From positions 2,087 to 66,086 of the forward strand of contig CAKZPI010000042.1 in NCBI GenBank assembly GCA_937139155.1: a DNA stretch of 64,000 bases, in the 5' to 3' direction. This stretch comes from an uncultured Flavobacteriales bacterium. GTDB taxonomy: Bacteria; Bacteroidota; Bacteroidia; Flavobacteriales; JBLHRE01. This document shows, one piece after another, positions 1 through 7,624 of this stretch (positions are counted from its first letter, which is position 1; each line of letters opens with the position of its first letter). Both the position numbers and the translations under genes were made by a program. The notes beneath the pieces were generated by a model. It saw only the letters and a list, made by a program, of their open reading frames with translations. It ran no database searches and was not told the DNA's origin.

Positions 1-78
1 CCTACTCATAATTGGCAAACCGTTGTAGCTAATGTGAAAAGGTCACTCTGAAAATCATTAACTTTGGTAAAGGTCAAC

Positions 79-381
79 ATGAACGCCTTGAACGAACATA
101 TCGAACTAATCAAAGAAGCCTGCTCGCTAAATCGGGTGAAACGATTATTTGCATTCGGGTCTGTTACTAGAAATGAGTTGAAGCCTGAAAGCGATATTGA
201 TCTGGTTGTTGAATTCGATGACAGCGACCCCATTTCATACACCGATCACTATTTTGACTTAAAGGAAAAGCTCGAGCAGCTATTAAAACGCCCAATTGAT
301 TTGCTTGAAGAAAAGGCCATTAGAAATCCATTTTTGAGAAGTGAGATTGACAAAACAAAGGTGATGATCTATGGAGAGTGA
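79..381 (+). CDS. Minimal nucleotidyltransferase (MNT-type antitoxin of a HEPN/MNT pair)
   Basis: The translation contains GSVTRNELKPESDIDLVVEF, the GS...DxD signature of minimal nucleotidyltransferases. The ORF is small (~100 aa) and overlaps the downstream HEPN ORF by 11 nt. The track starts at a TTG (64); the first ATG is at 79. Confidence 0.8.
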   Translation: MNALNEHIELIKEACSLNRVKRLFAFGSVTRNELKPESDIDLVVEFDDSDPISYTDHYFDLKEKLEQLLKRPIDLLEEKAIRNPFLRSEIDKTKVMIYGE

Positions 382-709
382 GATCAAAATCTGGTTGTCG
401 GATATCAGAGAAGCTATCCGGGAAATCAATCAATTTCTTCCAGAAAAAAGAGATTTCAAAGACTTTCAGAAGGACCTAAAGACAAAGCGAGCCATTGAGA
501 GAAACATCGAAATAATCGGTGAAGCTGTGAACAGAATCTTACAAGTCAATTTAGGGGTATCCATTTCCAGTGCACGAAAAATTGTAGACACAAGAAACAG
601 GATCATTCATGGCTATGACTCAGTCTCGGAAGAAATAATTTGGGCCATTGTAATTAGTGACCTTCCACTTCTTGAAAAAGAAGTTGACTCTTTATTAAAA
701 GAGGAATAA
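371..709 (+). CDS. HEPN / DUF86 family protein (HepT-like toxin partner of MNT)
   Basis: 112 aa with RNRIIHGY, which matches the Rx4-6H HEPN motif. It is translationally coupled to the upstream nucleotidyltransferase. Confidence 0.8.
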   Translation: MESEIKIWLSDIREAIREINQFLPEKRDFKDFQKDLKTKRAIERNIEIIGEAVNRILQVNLGVSISSARKIVDTRNRIIHGYDSVSEEIIWAIVISDLPLLEKEVDSLLKEE

Positions 710-2643: not shown

Positions 2644-3402
2644 CTAATTAAGATTGGTCTCTGATTTTTGAGAGTACCAACCTAGCAATAAAAGAATGGC
2701 AAATGAAATTAAGGCCTTGCTGTAAATGGCTTTCTGGTAATCATTTATGATTGAGGCCGGGGTTTGCCATTGAATGAACTGAAGTTTTTGATCAGATTCT
2801 AAGGCCTGATTCAACCATTTTCGCTTTTCTGGGTTGGGAAGGATAATTACTTCCTCCTTATTTTTTTCAATGGCCTCTAAGGCATTAAGTCTTAGCTTTT
2901 CGCGATCTTTTCCTGGTCCGGCAAAAACCATGTAAACCTTATTTAAGCTGTCTTCATAAACCGGTTGGTAGGCAATGGTGAGTTGATCTGTACTGTCGTG
3001 GATGAACTCAAATTGGTCGGAAGTACGGAAAATCTTGTTGGGGTCTTTTACCCGACCCGAGTCAGAGTTCAGAATGAGTTCTTTGTCTGAAATTGGGTTG
3101 TACTCAGGAAGGTTTCCGAGGTATTTTTCTGTAAGCTTTGCTGAGCCCATCGGACCCGCAAGGAGGATTAAAATCATCATCAAGGCCACCGAGTGGATTA
3201 CGAAGAACAAAACTCCGAAGGGAGCCTTTTCCTGGGTCCATGGCCGCCATTGGTAGATGGCCGCGGCAATAATAGGACCAAAGATCATGCATGCAAAGGC
3301 TGCAAATCCAGCTTGGTTTACCAACAAAAGGTAGGCGGGAATGAAAAGTAGGAAGCTTATGCCCAAATGAATGAAGAAGGCTTTTAAGAAGCGATTAAGC
3401 AT
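2644..3402 (-). CDS. Hypothetical membrane protein
   Basis: Three or four hydrophobic helices at the N-terminus and one at the C-terminus. I chose the start at internal Met25 (3402) so that the ORF does not run over the ettA promoter region. No family was recognised. Confidence 0.45.
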   Translation of the reverse strand: MLNRFLKAFFIHLGISFLLFIPAYLLLVNQAGFAAFACMIFGPIIAAAIYQWRPWTQEKAPFGVLFFVIHSVALMMILILLAGPMGSAKLTEKYLGNLPEYNPISDKELILNSDSGRVKDPNKIFRTSDQFEFIHDSTDQLTIAYQPVYEDSLNKVYMVFAGPGKDREKLRLNALEAIEKNKEEVIILPNPEKRKWLNQALESDQKLQFIQWQTPASIINDYQKAIYSKALISFAILLLLGWYSQKSETNLN

Positions 3403-3432
3403 GGGTTCGAATTTTCGGCAAACTTCTGAATT

Positions 3433-3461
3433 TTTGCCCAAGGATGGGGCTTTTATTTTTG
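3433..3461 (+). promoter_or_regulatory. Candidate Bacteroidota sigma-A promoter for ettA (-33 TTTG, -7 TAnnTTTG)
   Basis: TTTG at 3433-3436 and TATTTTTG at 3454-3461 are 17 nt apart and sit 28 nt upstream of the ettA ATG. This matches the published Bacteroides/Flavobacterium -33/-7 consensus. Confidence 0.35.
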
Positions 3462-3488
3462 CGATATTCGCCACCTCAAAATTTAGTT

Positions 3489-5177
3489 ATGTCAGACGAT
3501 AAGCAGGTTATATTTTCAATGGTTGGTGTGAGCAAGTCTTACCCCAACGGTAAACAAGTTCTTAAAGACATTTACCTTTCTTTTTTCTACGGAGCCAAGA
3601 TTGGTATCATTGGTTTGAACGGATCGGGTAAATCAACCCTTCTTAGAATCATTGCCGGGGTAGAGAAGTCATACCAAGGGGATGTTCATTTTTCTCCAGG
3701 CTATTCTGTGGGAATGCTTGAGCAGGAACCCCAGCTTGACGAATCAAAAACCGTTATGGAGATTGTGAAGGAAGGGGTCCAGGAAACGGTTGACGTATTG
3801 AATGAATACAATGCCATTTCTGAGAAATTCATGGATGAAGAAGTCATGAATGACCCAGACAAAATGCAGAAGCTTATTGACCGCCAAGGTGAACTGCAAG
3901 ATAAAATTGATGCGGCCAATGCATGGGAACTAGATTCTATGCTAGAGCGCGCCATGGACGCCCTTCGTTGTCCGGATGGAGACGCCCCCATTGCTCAGCT
4001 ATCAGGAGGGGAGCGTAGGAGGGTTGCCCTTTGCAGACTGCTTTTAAAACAACCCGATATTTTGCTTTTGGATGAGCCTACCAACCACCTTGACGCAGAA
4101 TCTGTGCATTGGTTAGAGCAGCATCTTCAACAATATAAAGGAACCGTAATTGCCATTACCCACGATAGGTATTTCCTTGACAATGTAGCGGGGTGGATTT
4201 TGGAACTCGACCGAGGAGAAGGCATTCCCTGGAAAGGAAATTATTCAGGATGGCTGGACCAAAAAAGCAAGCGGTTGGCTCAGGAAGAAAAGCAAGAGTC
4301 TAAGCGTAGAAAAACCCTTGAACGAGAACTTGAATGGGTGCGAATGAGCCCGAAGGGCCGTCAAGCGAAAAGCAAAGCTCGTTTGAGCAATTACGATAAA
4401 CTGGTCAGCCAAGAAACCAAAGACCGCGAGGCCAAATTGGAATTATTCATTCCGCCTGGACCTAGGCTTGGATCCAACGTGATTGAAGCGAAAAACATTT
4501 CGAAAGGATTCGGAGATCGACTTTTAATTGAAGATTTGAGCTTCAATCTTCCCCCAGCAGGCATTGTAGGTGTTATCGGCCCAAATGGCGCGGGAAAAAC
4601 CACTTTGTTTAAAATGATCATGGGACAAGAAGAGCCAGATCAGGGTGAATTCAAGGTAGGAGATACCGTAGAGGTGTCTTATGTGGATCAAAGACATGAA
4701 GACTTGATTCCAGATAAGACCATCTATGAGGTTATCTCTCAAGGCGAGGAAACCATTATGCTTGGCAAGCAAGAAATCAACGCCAGGGCATACCTAAGCA
4801 AGTTTAATTTTGCCGGATCGGACCAAAGCAAAAAAGTTGGGGTGCTTTCAGGAGGAGAAAGAAACCGATTGCATCTTGCCATGGCCATGAAGCAAGGGGG
4901 GAACGTCTTGCTTTTGGATGAGCCTACCAACGACTTGGATGTGAATACCCTTCGTGCCCTTGAAGAAGCCCTTGAAAACTTTGGAGGCTGTGCTGTGGTG
5001 ATTTCCCATGATAGATGGTTCCTTGATCGGATTTGTACTCATATGCTAGCATTTGAGGGGAATAGTCAGGTTTATTATTTTGAAGGTGGCTATTCTGATT
5101 ACGAGGAAAACCGCAAGAAGAGAATGGGAGAAACCGAGCCCAAACGCATTCGGTACAAGCCTCTTGTGAAGAACTAG
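3489..5177 (+). CDS. ettA: Energy-dependent translational throttle protein EttA (ABC-F ATPase)
   Basis: Two ABC cassettes are present (GLNGSGKST ... LSGGERRRVAL ... LLLDEPTNHLD, then GPNGAGKTT ... LSGGERNRLHL ... LLLDEPTNDLD) with no TM domain. The ~560 aa length and inter-domain linker are typical of EttA. The start is placed at MSDDKQVIF (3489). Confidence 0.9.
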   Translation: MSDDKQVIFSMVGVSKSYPNGKQVLKDIYLSFFYGAKIGIIGLNGSGKSTLLRIIAGVEKSYQGDVHFSPGYSVGMLEQEPQLDESKTVMEIVKEGVQETVDVLNEYNAISEKFMDEEVMNDPDKMQKLIDRQGELQDKIDAANAWELDSMLERAMDALRCPDGDAPIAQLSGGERRRVALCRLLLKQPDILLLDEPTNHLDAESVHWLEQHLQQYKGTVIAITHDRYFLDNVAGWILELDRGEGIPWKGNYSGWLDQKSKRLAQEEKQESKRRKTLERELEWVRMSPKGRQAKSKARLSNYDKLVSQETKDREAKLELFIPPGPRLGSNVIEAKNISKGFGDRLLIEDLSFNLPPAGIVGVIGPNGAGKTTLFKMIMGQEEPDQGEFKVGDTVEVSYVDQRHEDLIPDKTIYEVISQGEETIMLGKQEINARAYLSKFNFAGSDQSKKVGVLSGGERNRLHLAMAMKQGGNVLLLDEPTNDLDVNTLRALEEALENFGGCAVVISHDRWFLDRICTHMLAFEGNSQVYYFEGGYSDYEENRKKRMGETEPKRIRYKPLVKN

Positions 5178-5232
5178 TTCAAGGTCTTATGGTGATGGTC
5201 TTATCTAGGTAATCATACCCTTTCGGGTTACC

Positions 5233-6187
5233 ATCAACCTTCTCGTTTTGATTTAGACGGCATACGCCAAGGGCGCATGCTGGCATCATAGGGTGGGGCT
5301 TTGGGTTAAAGAGACGTTATCCGCCTGAGGCGGATAAAATGTATGGGTGGAATTATTTGGATAGGACTTGGTGTCAATGCTTTGGATTTAACCTGAAAAG
5401 TTTCGTCCGTCCGGGGTGCGCTGTAGCAAAGTTCTACGTAAGTGATTGATCTGATTCAAGTTACTCAACCCTTTTTGGCTGAAATCAACCGTCCTGGCTT
5501 GATTTAGACGGCATACGCCCAGGGCGCATGCTGGCATTATGGGTTGGGTGTTTGGTTAAAGAGACGTTATCCGCCTTAGGCGGATCAGGGGTGAGGGTAG
5601 AATTATTTGGATAGGACTTGGTGTCAATGCTTTGGATTTAACCTGAAAAGTTTCGTCCGTCCGGGGTACGCAATAGGATAGTACCGACTTGATGATTAGA
5701 CAGGTTCAAGTTAATCACACCTTTTTGGCTGAAATCAACCTTCTCGTTTTGATTTAGACGGCATACGCCTAAGGCGCATGCTGGCATCTTGTGGGGTGGG
5801 GTTTTGGGTTAAAGAGACGTTATCCGCCTGAGGCGGATAAGAGGTGAGGGTAGAATTATTTGGATAGGGCTTTGTGTCAATGCTTTGGATTTAACCTGAA
5901 AAGTTTCGTCCGTCCGGGGTGCGCTGTAGCAAAGTACTACGTAAGTGATTGATCTGATTCAAGTTTACCATTTTCTTAAGGGTTGCAATCAACCTTCTCG
6001 TTTTGATTTAGACGGCATACGCCTAGGGCGCATGCTGGTATTATGGGGTGGGGTGTTGGGTTAAAGAGACGTTATCCGCCTGAGGCGGATAAAATGTATG
6101 GGTGGAATTATTTGGATAGGGCAGCGTACCGATATCGAGGGTTCAACTCCAAAGGTTTCGTCCGCCTCAGGCGGACGATGTCTTTTT
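5233..6187. repeat. Tandem array of four ~250-bp structured units (three full copies plus one variant/truncated copy)
   Basis: The anchor ATCAACC recurs at 5233, 5484, 5734 and 5988 (periods 251, 250, 254). Each unit carries hairpin A, GCATACGCC-NNN-GGCGCATGC (for example 5260-5280), and hairpin B, TTATCCGCC-TGAG-GGCGGATAA (for example 5317-5337). No ORF of 60 aa or more exists on either strand. Confidence 0.9.
6159..6187 (+). terminator. Intrinsic-terminator-like hairpin closing the repeat array on the plus strand
   Basis: An 8-bp GC-rich stem, CGTCCGCC-TCAG-GGCGGACG, is followed by ATGTCTTTTT. Confidence 0.55.
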
Positions 6188-6207
6188 AAGCCCCCACGGT
6201 AAACAAT

Positions 6208-6241
6208 AAAAAAAGGGACCACACTTTCGCAGGATCCCTTT
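6208..6241 (-). terminator. Terminator hairpin downstream of the kbl-like gene
   Basis: On the minus strand AAGGGATCC...GGTCCCTT is followed by a T7 run (the complement of A-run 6208-6214). It lies 23 nt after the stop codon. Confidence 0.6.
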
Positions 6242-6263
6242 TGAATGATTCTATATTTCAGAC

Positions 6264-7505
6264 CTAATGCATGGCAATGGTATCAGAAACATACTCACCA
6301 TTGGCAAGCTTGTCTTTGATTTTTGAGAAGGATTCAATGGTATATTTCACATCCTCTAAACTGTGCATGGCGGTGGGGATCAGTCGTAGCATGATCACAC
6401 CTTTAGGTACTACAGGGTAGGTTACAATGGAACAGAAGATTCCAAAATTCTCACGTAAATCCAGGGTTAAATTCGTGGCCTCACCAACACCTCCATTTAA
6501 AAACACAGGGGTTACTGGCGATTGGGTATTTCCTAAATTGAACCCTGCTTCCTTCAAACCACTTTGAAGAGCATTGGCGATTTCCCAAAGCTTATCCTTC
6601 AACTCAGGCTTGCTGCGTAGCAATTCAAGGCGTTTTAATGCTCCAATTACCAATGGGATGGGCAGAGACTTGGCGAAAATCTGAGAGCGCATGTTGTAGC
6701 GCAGGTATTCAATTACATTTTCATTACCGGAGATGAAGGCTCCAATAAGGGCCATACTCTTGGCAAAGGTTCCAAAGTAAACATCAATCCCGTCTTGACA
6801 GTTCAAATGCTCACCGGTTCCAACACCCGTTTTTCCCATGGTTCCAAACCCGTGGGCATCATCCACAAACAAACGGAACTCAAATTTTTCCTTCAGGGCG
6901 CAGATTTCATCCAACTTACCCATATCACCAGACATTCCGAAAACCCCCTCGGTGATCACCAGTACGGCGCCACCAGTTTTCTCTGTAATTTTCTCCGCTC
7001 GTTCAAGCTGCTTGGTTAGGTTCTCAATATCGTTGTGAGGAAATACAAAACGCTTTCCTTGGTGAAGACGAACTCCATCAACAATACAAGCGTGCGATTC
7101 TGCATCGTAAACTATTACGTCATTCCGGTCTACCAAGGCGTCAATCGCGCTAAGCATACCCTGATACCCGAAATTCAATAGGATGGTATCTTCCTTCTGC
7201 ATGAAATCCGAAAGCTCTTTCTCAAGCTTTTCGTGGTAATTGGTATTACCAGACATCATCCGAGACCCCATTGGGTATCCTAAGCCCCATTCGGCTGCAG
7301 CCTTAGCATCTGCCTCACGAACCTCCGGGTGATTGGCCAAACCTATGTAGTTGTTGATTGACCAACCCAGAACTTCCTTGCCTCGAAACTTCATATGAGC
7401 TGCTACCTCACCTTCTAATTTGGGGAAAGTGAAATACCCATGAGCATCTTTGGCGTGTTGGCCAAGAGGACCTCTATTATGCTTAATCTTCTCAAATAAA
7501 TCCAT
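6264..7505 (-). CDS. Alpha-oxoamine synthase family PLP enzyme (2-amino-3-ketobutyrate CoA ligase / AONS / Spt-like)
   Basis: About 413 aa with the class-II aminotransferase fold. It has DDAHGFG and the PLP-lysine motif GTFAKSMA, and an N-terminus (MDLFEKIK...LGQH) like Kbl-type enzymes. Substrate cannot be assigned from sequence; Bacteroidota paralogs make sphingolipid or sulfonolipid bases. Confidence 0.8.
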   Translation of the reverse strand: MDLFEKIKHNRGPLGQHAKDAHGYFTFPKLEGEVAAHMKFRGKEVLGWSINNYIGLANHPEVREADAKAAAEWGLGYPMGSRMMSGNTNYHEKLEKELSDFMQKEDTILLNFGYQGMLSAIDALVDRNDVIVYDAESHACIVDGVRLHQGKRFVFPHNDIENLTKQLERAEKITEKTGGAVLVITEGVFGMSGDMGKLDEICALKEKFEFRLFVDDAHGFGTMGKTGVGTGEHLNCQDGIDVYFGTFAKSMALIGAFISGNENVIEYLRYNMRSQIFAKSLPIPLVIGALKRLELLRSKPELKDKLWEIANALQSGLKEAGFNLGNTQSPVTPVFLNGGVGEATNLTLDLRENFGIFCSIVTYPVVPKGVIMLRLIPTAMHSLEDVKYTIESFSKIKDKLANGEYVSDTIAMH

Positions 7506-7624
7506 GCGTGAATACCTTTTTAAAATGGCGTACAAAAGTAGAAACTTAGACTAAGGTGGCAAATATTTCGTTTTCAACTTTATTTAGGCTTTACAAGCCA
7601 TATTAAAAAACCTATTTTTGCCGG

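Follow-up and report, generated by a model that had tools for sequence, protein, structure and literature searches.

Bacterial intergenic variable-number tandem repeats (VNTRs), such as Wolbachia VNTR-105/141 and the mycobacterial interspersed repetitive units (MIRUs), consist of head-to-tail units of ~100–250 bp that contain palindromic stretches and have no product of their own. Small RNA (sRNA) genes may also stand in tandem, and LhrC1–5 in Listeria form such an array. NsiR1 in Nostoc is a second tandem sRNA gene array (PMC9045159). Repetitive extragenic palindromes (REPs) of the GTAG- and CGTC-tagged types have 8–9-bp stems and lie downstream of open reading frames (ORFs), between convergent genes (Di Nocera et al. 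2013, PMC3733652). In Flavobacteria, the guide RNAs (gRNAs) of dCas12f–sigmaE systems are 85–105 nt long, carry a 14–16-nt guide at the 3′ end, and are mostly encoded directly downstream of dcas12f (PMC13472631). Here, we compare with these systems a tandem array in a 64-kb (64,000-nt) stretch of DNA from an uncultured Flavobacteriales bacterium (the window), where four palindrome-bearing units of ~250 bp fill the 1.08-kb gap between the convergent genes ettA and a kbl-like gene.

With moderate confidence, we take the array to be a lineage-restricted, locus-specific tandem DNA repeat, resembling a VNTR/macrosatellite or a REP cluster, that is built from terminator-like palindromes at a rearrangement junction and that probably undergoes recombinational turnover and is transcribed only as a tail of ettA. 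The data can be explained without a dedicated RNA or protein product.

Results

The gap is bounded on one side by ettA (3489–5177, plus strand), an ORF for the energy-dependent translational throttle ABC-F protein whose homologues are named EttA/ChvD, and on the other by the kbl-like gene (6264–7505, minus strand), whose 413-aa product belongs, by its homologues, to the glycine C-acetyltransferase/8-amino-7-oxononanoate synthase family. Tandem Repeats Finder (TRF) calls an array at 5233–6120 with a period of 250, 3.5 copies, 85% matches, and a score of 1316, and an nhmmer profile of the unit sets four units at 5204–5454, 5456–5703, 5706–5957, and 5959–6212. Both bear out the initial annotation of this DNA, which had described four ~250-bp, head-to-tail, hairpin-bearing units in the ettA/kbl gap. 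It had the copies starting at 5233, but similarity between units begins already at ~5190, nearly at the ettA stop codon. Combining TRF, direct-repeat families, nhmmer, and alignments, we place the whole array at 5190–6200 and its units at 5205–5455 (W1), 5456–5705 (W2), 5706–5958 (W3), and 5959–6200 (W4), the last diverging past ~6120, as had been noticed, and ending in a terminator. The longest ORF within 5178–6263 has 53 aa, in agreement with the earlier statement that none reaches 60 aa. The array occupies a single locus, and nhmmer finds no copy of the unit elsewhere in the window.

Each unit has a core of ~160 nt, 90–93% identical among units, and a linker of ~90 nt, 49–82% identical between units (48–82% among variable alleles) with nearly no indels. 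The linkers (5409–5497, with copies at 5659–5747 and 5912–6001) run between the conserved cores, which contain, in order, the 3′ arm of a weak hairpin (H0), palindrome A, a G/T-rich tract, palindrome B, and an unpaired conserved block (GAATTATTTGGATAGG...GTTTCGTCCG). The mosaic structure first read from the letters is confirmed by the alignments. In the segment after palindrome B, units 1 and 4 share one allele and units 2 and 3 a second one, and in the 3′ variable part units 1 and 3 are 82% identical, versus 62–71% with unit 2 (0–1 gaps), W2 carrying a divergent variable-region allele. Length variation had been thought confined to the G/T-rich tract (GGGTGGGGCTTTGGG and variants; 5291–5305, plus strand); the tract is indeed the chief site, but a single 1-nt length difference lies outside it. 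The plus strand of the array is rich in G+T. Every unit also has on this strand three close G-runs (GGG(G)-T-GGGG-N3–4-GGG at 5290–5306, 5540–5556, 5792–5809, and 6044–6060), with a fourth GGG ~39 nt from them, past hairpin B. These runs coincide with the site of length variation; they could form a non-canonical G-quadruplex on the plus strand or leave a C-rich tract unpaired on the minus strand.

The hairpin A pattern, GGCATACGCC-NNN-GGCGCATGC, has exactly four matches (at 5259, 5510, 5760, and 6014; shuffles expect 0), and the loops, from unit 1 to unit 4, are AAG, CAG, TAA, and TAG, just as originally listed. Palindrome A of W1 reads GCATACGCC-AAG-GGCGCATGC, with AGACG before the stem, at 5260–5280 (copies at 5511–5531, 5761–5781, and 6015–6035); its stems are unchanged across all six unit types of the two samples described below, and its loop is variable. 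The single mismatch in hairpin A is A·C on the plus strand and a G·U pair on the minus strand, an earlier observation that holds. Palindrome B of W1, TTATCCGCC-TGA-GGCGGATAA, again with AGACG before the stem, lies at 5317–5337 (copies at 5567–5587, 5820–5840, and 6072–6092). Hairpin B and the terminal hairpin of the array both have 9-bp stems and 3-nt loops, and their original description therefore needs a small correction. The four copies of B are present, but the loop given as TGAG had one G too many and in unit 2 it is TTA, with one pair of the stem broken; the terminal hairpin does re-use the B core in inverted form before a T-run, but its loop is TCA rather than TCAG. The inverted copy is partial, with 6149–6197 matching the palindrome B region 6053–6101 in reverse (nhmmer match 6192–6149, E = 9e-5). 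H0, a weak A/T hairpin recognized by folding and alignment (AAATCAA, a variable 10-nt loop, TTGATTT), lies at 5482–5505, with copies at 5231–5254, 5732–5755, and 5986–6009. A and B share a module in which (A)GACG precedes a 9-bp stem whose first arm ends in CGCC, followed by 3 nt and GGCG..., and judged by sequence one hairpin module, with an (A)GAC(G/A) flank in every case, underlies both palindromes and the inverted terminal hairpin. Outside the array, neither hairpin A nor hairpin B occurs in the 64 kb, even at 3 mismatches, or in shuffles.

The window is identical to ENA ERZ650162 NODE_147, and the sole other source of the unit is a second metagenome sample, ERZ928089, which carries the locus on two contigs, L002 (kbl side) and L032 (ettA side). 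Both end inside the array (in-array ends L002 7471–7879 and L032 7309–7709). L002 matches the window at 100% identity for 7.47 kb, a stretch that reaches the 3′ arm of palindrome A in the unit nearest kbl; from the palindrome A loop onward, identity falls to 83–90%. L032 equals the window at 100% over 461 bp, comprising the 3′ end of ettA and the first 1.5 units (401 nt past ettA). The interior of the array is ~84% identical between the samples, with differing variable-region alleles, and L002 holds new linker alleles and different H0 loops. In one of its units, S3, the core resembles a chimera of the W4 and W3 types. The locus therefore shows head-to-tail units at one place that differ inside between samples while the flanks agree, which is what is expected of a variable tandem repeat. 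The differences seen are in content; one in copy number would escape detection, since the ERZ928089 contigs stop within the array. Their simplest account would be unequal crossing-over or gene conversion in an array that is, or once was, larger than four units.

The comparison took in relatives with a kbl homologue of 91, 90, 89, or 87% identity and relatives with an ettA homologue of 86%. Where kbl is 87–91% identical, it is followed by dnaE or another gene after a gap of 50–490 bp, and the unit is absent. Where ettA is 86% identical, it has a canonical terminator and unrelated neighboring genes. Set against window positions 3444–7535, the loci of the relatives (L003, L009, L033, and L034) have kbl convergent with dnaE and ettA beside Por_Secre_tail/FG-GAP genes, and neither nhmmer nor blastn finds a unit or unit fragment in them. 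The array is thus positioned exactly at a species-specific synteny breakpoint, and among the species compared the ettA–kbl junction is found only in this one. More widely, the hairpin A pattern gave isolated chance matches, with the other unit motifs absent, in 185,579 species-representative genomes and JGI metagenomes, and no match in three scans of viral contigs; a distant-mode blastn search against phages and plasmids also had no match. Within reach of these searches, the element is confined to one uncultured Flavobacteriales species. We considered a parallel array in the relative with 86% ettA identity (L033) and rejected it: the tail there has a 50-nt, two-copy repeat at 76% and no homology to the unit. 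That tail is a ~1-kb gene-less stretch past ettA (L033 6687–7726) with a perfect 24-nt tandem duplication at 6735–6782, a weak two-copy repeat at ~300-bp spacing, and a terminal poly-G run that resembles a sequencing artefact.

The signals around the array suggest how it would be transcribed. The ettA of the window is the only one compared that lacks a terminator directly past its stop codon; the orthologues of the relatives have one. Between 5178 and 6157, no terminator is found except a weak one at 5979–5996, and the only good plus-strand terminator of the gap sits in the last unit (6158–6187; TCGTCCGCC-TCA-GGCGGACGA with a T-run, from a terminator scan). On the other side, the kbl-like gene has its own intrinsic terminator (6207–6243, minus strand; GGGATCC...GGTCCC with a T-run), a stable hairpin in the minus-strand fold, which separates kbl transcription from the array. 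The Bacteroidetes −7 box TAnnTTTG occurs, at the expected distance, before ettA (TATTTTTG at 3454) and before kbl (TACTTTTG at 7540) but on neither strand of 5100–6300. A sigma-70-type scan gave no site in the array and one match outside it, near the kbl 3′ end (6277–6248, minus strand). These scans covered the two promoter types named. Because the array has no promoter and the terminator layout fits read-through from ettA, we favor passive transcription as an ettA tail, in line with the ettA 3′ extension that the initial annotation had offered as an option.

The alternative that survives best, which we consider possible but improbable, is that the array encodes a functional modular non-coding RNA. 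In a plus-strand version, it would be a structured 3′ untranslated region of ettA that is processed to unit-length RNAs or acts as a stabilizer or decoy; the absence of an ettA terminator before the array, the restriction of the plus-strand terminator to the last unit, and the G+T richness expected of a sense strand are all consistent with this. In a minus-strand version, each unit would be an sRNA gene that palindrome B terminates, and the paralogues would owe their different specificities to the variable linker. Here, palindrome B is terminator-like on the minus strand, with a CGTCTCTTTA tail, and is flagged in three of the four units; no such terminator per unit exists on the plus strand. 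The placement of the G·U pair and the fold z-scores point the same way. Single units score −2.5 and −2.9 on the minus strand and −0.9 and −2.2 on the plus strand, modest values in either case. The plus strand has the lower raw fold energy (−388 versus −305 kcal/mol), but this is an effect of its G+U composition because its z-scores against shuffles are no better than those of the minus strand. Either version would make sense of a conserved core joined to a variable linker in each unit, with invariant stems and varying loops.

Against these points stand the results of several searches. Rfam 15 has no match in the whole window at gathering score, in agreement with the initial failure to recognize any known RNA family. 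At E ≤ 10, the best matches in 4900–6500 (E = 0.49–9) are a terminator or noise, the terminator being that of kbl, whose stem matches the BjrC68 terminator stem in this sub-threshold scan. The window contains no tRNA or tmRNA. RNAalifold runs on five linker-spanning segments return local hairpins only, with a covariation term that is a penalty on both strands. With a fixed structure (palindrome A, H0, and a helix flanking the linker), 92.8% of cells are paired on the minus strand versus 87.2% on the plus strand, and the pairs changed on both sides number one and zero, respectively. Covariation does not rise above shuffles, 104 of 500 (minus) and 206 of 500 (plus) of which reach the observed scores. 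No canonical promoter box is present on either strand, hence no promoter per unit as in tandem sRNA arrays of the NsiR1/LhrC type, and the kbl terminator would stop transcription from entering on the minus strand. No k-mer of at least 14 from the array matches the rest of the window. Further, the variable alleles, at 48–82% mutual identity, are related to each other and hence not spacer-like. The initial annotation had proposed a tandem sRNA or structured RNA array and had named a lack of covariation and a lack of conservation outside the strain as grounds for abandoning it; on both strands compensatory changes above shuffles are absent, and the searches found no homologue outside the species, which speaks against a conserved structured RNA, and nothing positive speaks for one.

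The conflict between the strands noted at the outset persists: the G·U placement mildly favors the minus strand, and the promoter/terminator layout together with the G+T richness favors plus-strand read-through from ettA. One elaboration of the RNA idea is that the units are a lineage-specific modular RNA family, with a ~160-nt scaffold, two invariant 9-bp hairpins, and a fast-diversifying, fixed-length ~90-nt segment, in which the strain differences would reflect diversifying selection on a guide-, decoy-, or sponge-like specificity and not neutral turnover. We think this elaboration quite unlikely. Discrete unit RNAs, if they exist, would make the array more important, and its hypervariable segment of fixed length would then be of interest as a specificity module.

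Next comes the possibility, in our estimate an unlikely one, that the array is a local amplification of a dispersed mobile palindromic element, resembling REPs and bacterial interspersed mosaic elements (BIMEs), for example the CGTC-tagged REPs, or paired REP elements (REPINs) and miniature inverted-repeat transposable elements (MITEs). Its palindromes are 21 bp long with 8–9-bp stems (counted as 9 bp, or as 8 bp around a 5-nt loop), flanked by GACG/CGTC (GACG on the plus and CGTC on the minus strand) or by GACA/TGTC (TGTC at the terminal copy). The array also lies between convergent genes, and palindrome B with its inverted terminal copy (6053–6101/6149–6197) makes a REPIN-like pair. Moreover, the REP survey reports CGTC-tagged REPs in Bacteroidetes, with G. 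forsetii CGTC-positive, and clusters that arise by tandem reiteration (PMC3733652). However, the remaining 63 kb of the window and ~68 kb from the relatives contain no tagged hairpin or unit fragment. Target-site duplications are absent at the array ends, no flanking direct repeats are present, and no transposase lies nearby; together with the single locus in the window and the lack of phage, plasmid, or viral matches, these results speak against a MITE or other dispersed mobile repeat, an outcome that the initial annotation had asked to have checked. Going by the neisserial dRS3 consensus, moreover, the tag of CGTC REPs would lie on the other side of the stem than in the palindromes here. We do not claim membership in the CGTC/GTAG REP family.

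Alternatively, the palindromes could be DNA sites for a dimeric regulator, partition protein, or recombinase, the array serving as a binding platform. Perfect 9-3-9 dyad symmetry, invariant arms around a freely varying 3-bp spacer, and the presence of two related sites 57 bp apart in each unit would suit such a role. We nevertheless consider it very unlikely, as no candidate gene for a binding protein is adjacent, no such sites occur elsewhere in the window, and the hairpins with T-runs are more simply explained as terminators. GC skew shows no inflection pointing to an origin or terminus, for which reason an origin, terminus, or dif site was also rejected. A resemblance of TTATCCGCC to a DnaA box (TTATCCACA), with agreement at 7 of 9 positions, was judged coincidental.

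The weakest of the rivals, a small-gene cassette array in which each unit encodes a small protein, is extremely improbable. It would draw on a 49-aa minus-strand ORF (MPACALGVCRLNQ...RTPDGRNFSG) that spans palindrome A, H0, and the linker. W2, W3, and the S3 junction keep this ORF open at a length of exactly 49 codons, and in its frame the loop variants of palindrome A on the minus strand (CTT, CTG, TTA, and CTA) are all leucine codons, a coincidence that we treat as chance. However, its ATG is ATA in W4, S3, and S4 (three of the six unit types), and the W4 and S4 junctions truncate the frame or shift it. By inspection, W2 and S3 differ in the variable part at ~14 codons, of which ~14 are non-synonymous changes. 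The ORF has no promoter box in the array, gene callers place no gene there, phmmer against 1.84 billion representative proteins returns 0 matches, and a six-frame pseudo-protein of one unit against 5.8 billion proteins returns 0 at E ≤ 10. Every unit has stops in all six frames. With its start lost in half of the unit types, no hydrophobic character, and 0 homologues, the ORF also fits neither a small-protein family nor a type I toxin.

Two further candidates were rejected. CRISPR arrays have short (24–48-nt) identical repeats, unrelated spacers, and cas genes; here a unit spans 250 bp, the variable parts resemble one another as stated above, and no cas genes are in the neighborhood. For a dCas12f/TnpB gRNA array, the unit length is likewise wrong, no Cas12f/TnpB-like protein is found among 10 candidate ORFs, and no extracytoplasmic function (ECF) sigma factor is encoded at the locus.

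The neighboring genes are housekeeping or toxin–antitoxin genes. Upstream of the ettA neighborhood are the toxin–antitoxin pairs MNT/HepT (NTP_transf_2 plus HepT-like) and Gp49/HTH (window 64–709, L032 178–811), which suggest that this region is somewhat plastic. Between the HepT/MNT pair and a CarboxypepD_reg-like gene lies a second, intergenic tandem repeat (1259–1361) with a 14-nt unit (TCAACCATCAACTC), 7.4 copies, and 97% matches. An ORF of 276 aa (2644–3474, minus strand), divergent from ettA, has no Pfam match, and gene callers give it 177–276 aa across assemblies.

Discussion

How could such an array have arisen? In the account that we favor, that of a locus-specific tandem DNA repeat, a ~250-bp segment carrying two related, GACG-flanked, 9-bp GC-rich palindromes together with flanking DNA would have been reiterated head-to-tail at the synteny breakpoint that joins the ettA and kbl neighborhoods in one species. 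The units could then change by unequal crossing-over and by gene conversion between the conserved cores, and template-switching during replication could maintain the complementarity of the palindrome arms. Together, these processes would yield both the mosaic units and the differences between strains. Lacking a promoter of its own, the array would most likely be copied passively whenever ettA is transcribed, adding a 3′ tail of ~1 kb to the ettA mRNA and ending at the last unit's terminator. Antisense transcription would be predicted to stop at palindrome B with its T-rich tail.

Several observations weigh against this account. First, the contrast between a core at 90–93% and a linker at 49–82% identity is a striking heterogeneity of rate, and the linker keeps its length despite 30–50% divergence, which hints at a constraint on spacing or structure. 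Second, palindrome A occurs with four different loops, while its 18 stem bases and ~20 flanking bases never change. Such heterogeneity could mean selection on a product and not the dynamics of conversion. A tandem-repeat account does not fully explain either the core/linker contrast or the fixed linker length. Third, the mismatches favor pairing on the minus strand (the 92.8% versus 87.2% given above), which is at odds with a transcript made purely from the plus strand. Fourth, the differences in the array interior could partly stem from mixed-strain assembly, both ERZ928089 contigs ending in the array. Finally, the inspected genome sequence amounts to only 64 kb, so that dispersed copies may exist elsewhere, and the pattern scans required an exact match to one 19-base pattern, so that diverged relatives would escape them.

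If the array is indeed such a tandem repeat, it is an ordinary, if well-formed, case of how compact bacterial genomes acquire palindrome-bearing tandem repeats where rearrangements have joined them, and it would imply that no selection at the RNA level is required for stems to stay invariant while loops vary. In practice, the array could serve to tell strains of this uncultured Flavobacteriales lineage apart. Arrays of this kind also fragment metagenome assemblies, as seen in ERZ928089, where both contigs break inside.

In comparison with the known systems, the resemblance to the dCas12f–sigmaE gRNA arrays is that these, too, occur in Bacteroidetes, in tandem, and combine a conserved scaffold with a variable portion (PMC13472631); here, however, the variable parts are 90 nt long and mutually related. 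With the tandem sRNA arrays (NsiR1 and LhrC), the locus shares direct repeats in one intergenic region, each with a terminator hairpin, in this case on the minus strand. The NsiR1 and LhrC units have their own promoters, are 60–110 nt long, and are conserved across species, in contrast to the 250-bp units here, which have no promoter box and are not conserved. Like bacterial VNTRs, the array consists of intergenic head-to-tail units with palindromes and differs between strains amid identical flanks; unlike in VNTRs, its 250-bp units are split into a conserved core and a highly divergent linker, and the differences seen are in content.

REP clusters are, in our view, the closest described kind. 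The array differs from them in having no dispersed copies in 64 kb, in its loop of 3 nt (5 nt with an 8-bp stem), in a tag orientation that may be mirrored, and in the head-to-tail order of A and B, an arrangement that is rare for REPs. In common with REP clusters and BIMEs, it has short GC-rich palindromes with 8–9-bp stems and, perhaps, a comparable flanking tetranucleotide, a position downstream of ORFs between convergent genes, a probable construction by tandem reiteration together with flanking DNA, and a probable transcription as the 3′ end of an mRNA (PMC3733652).

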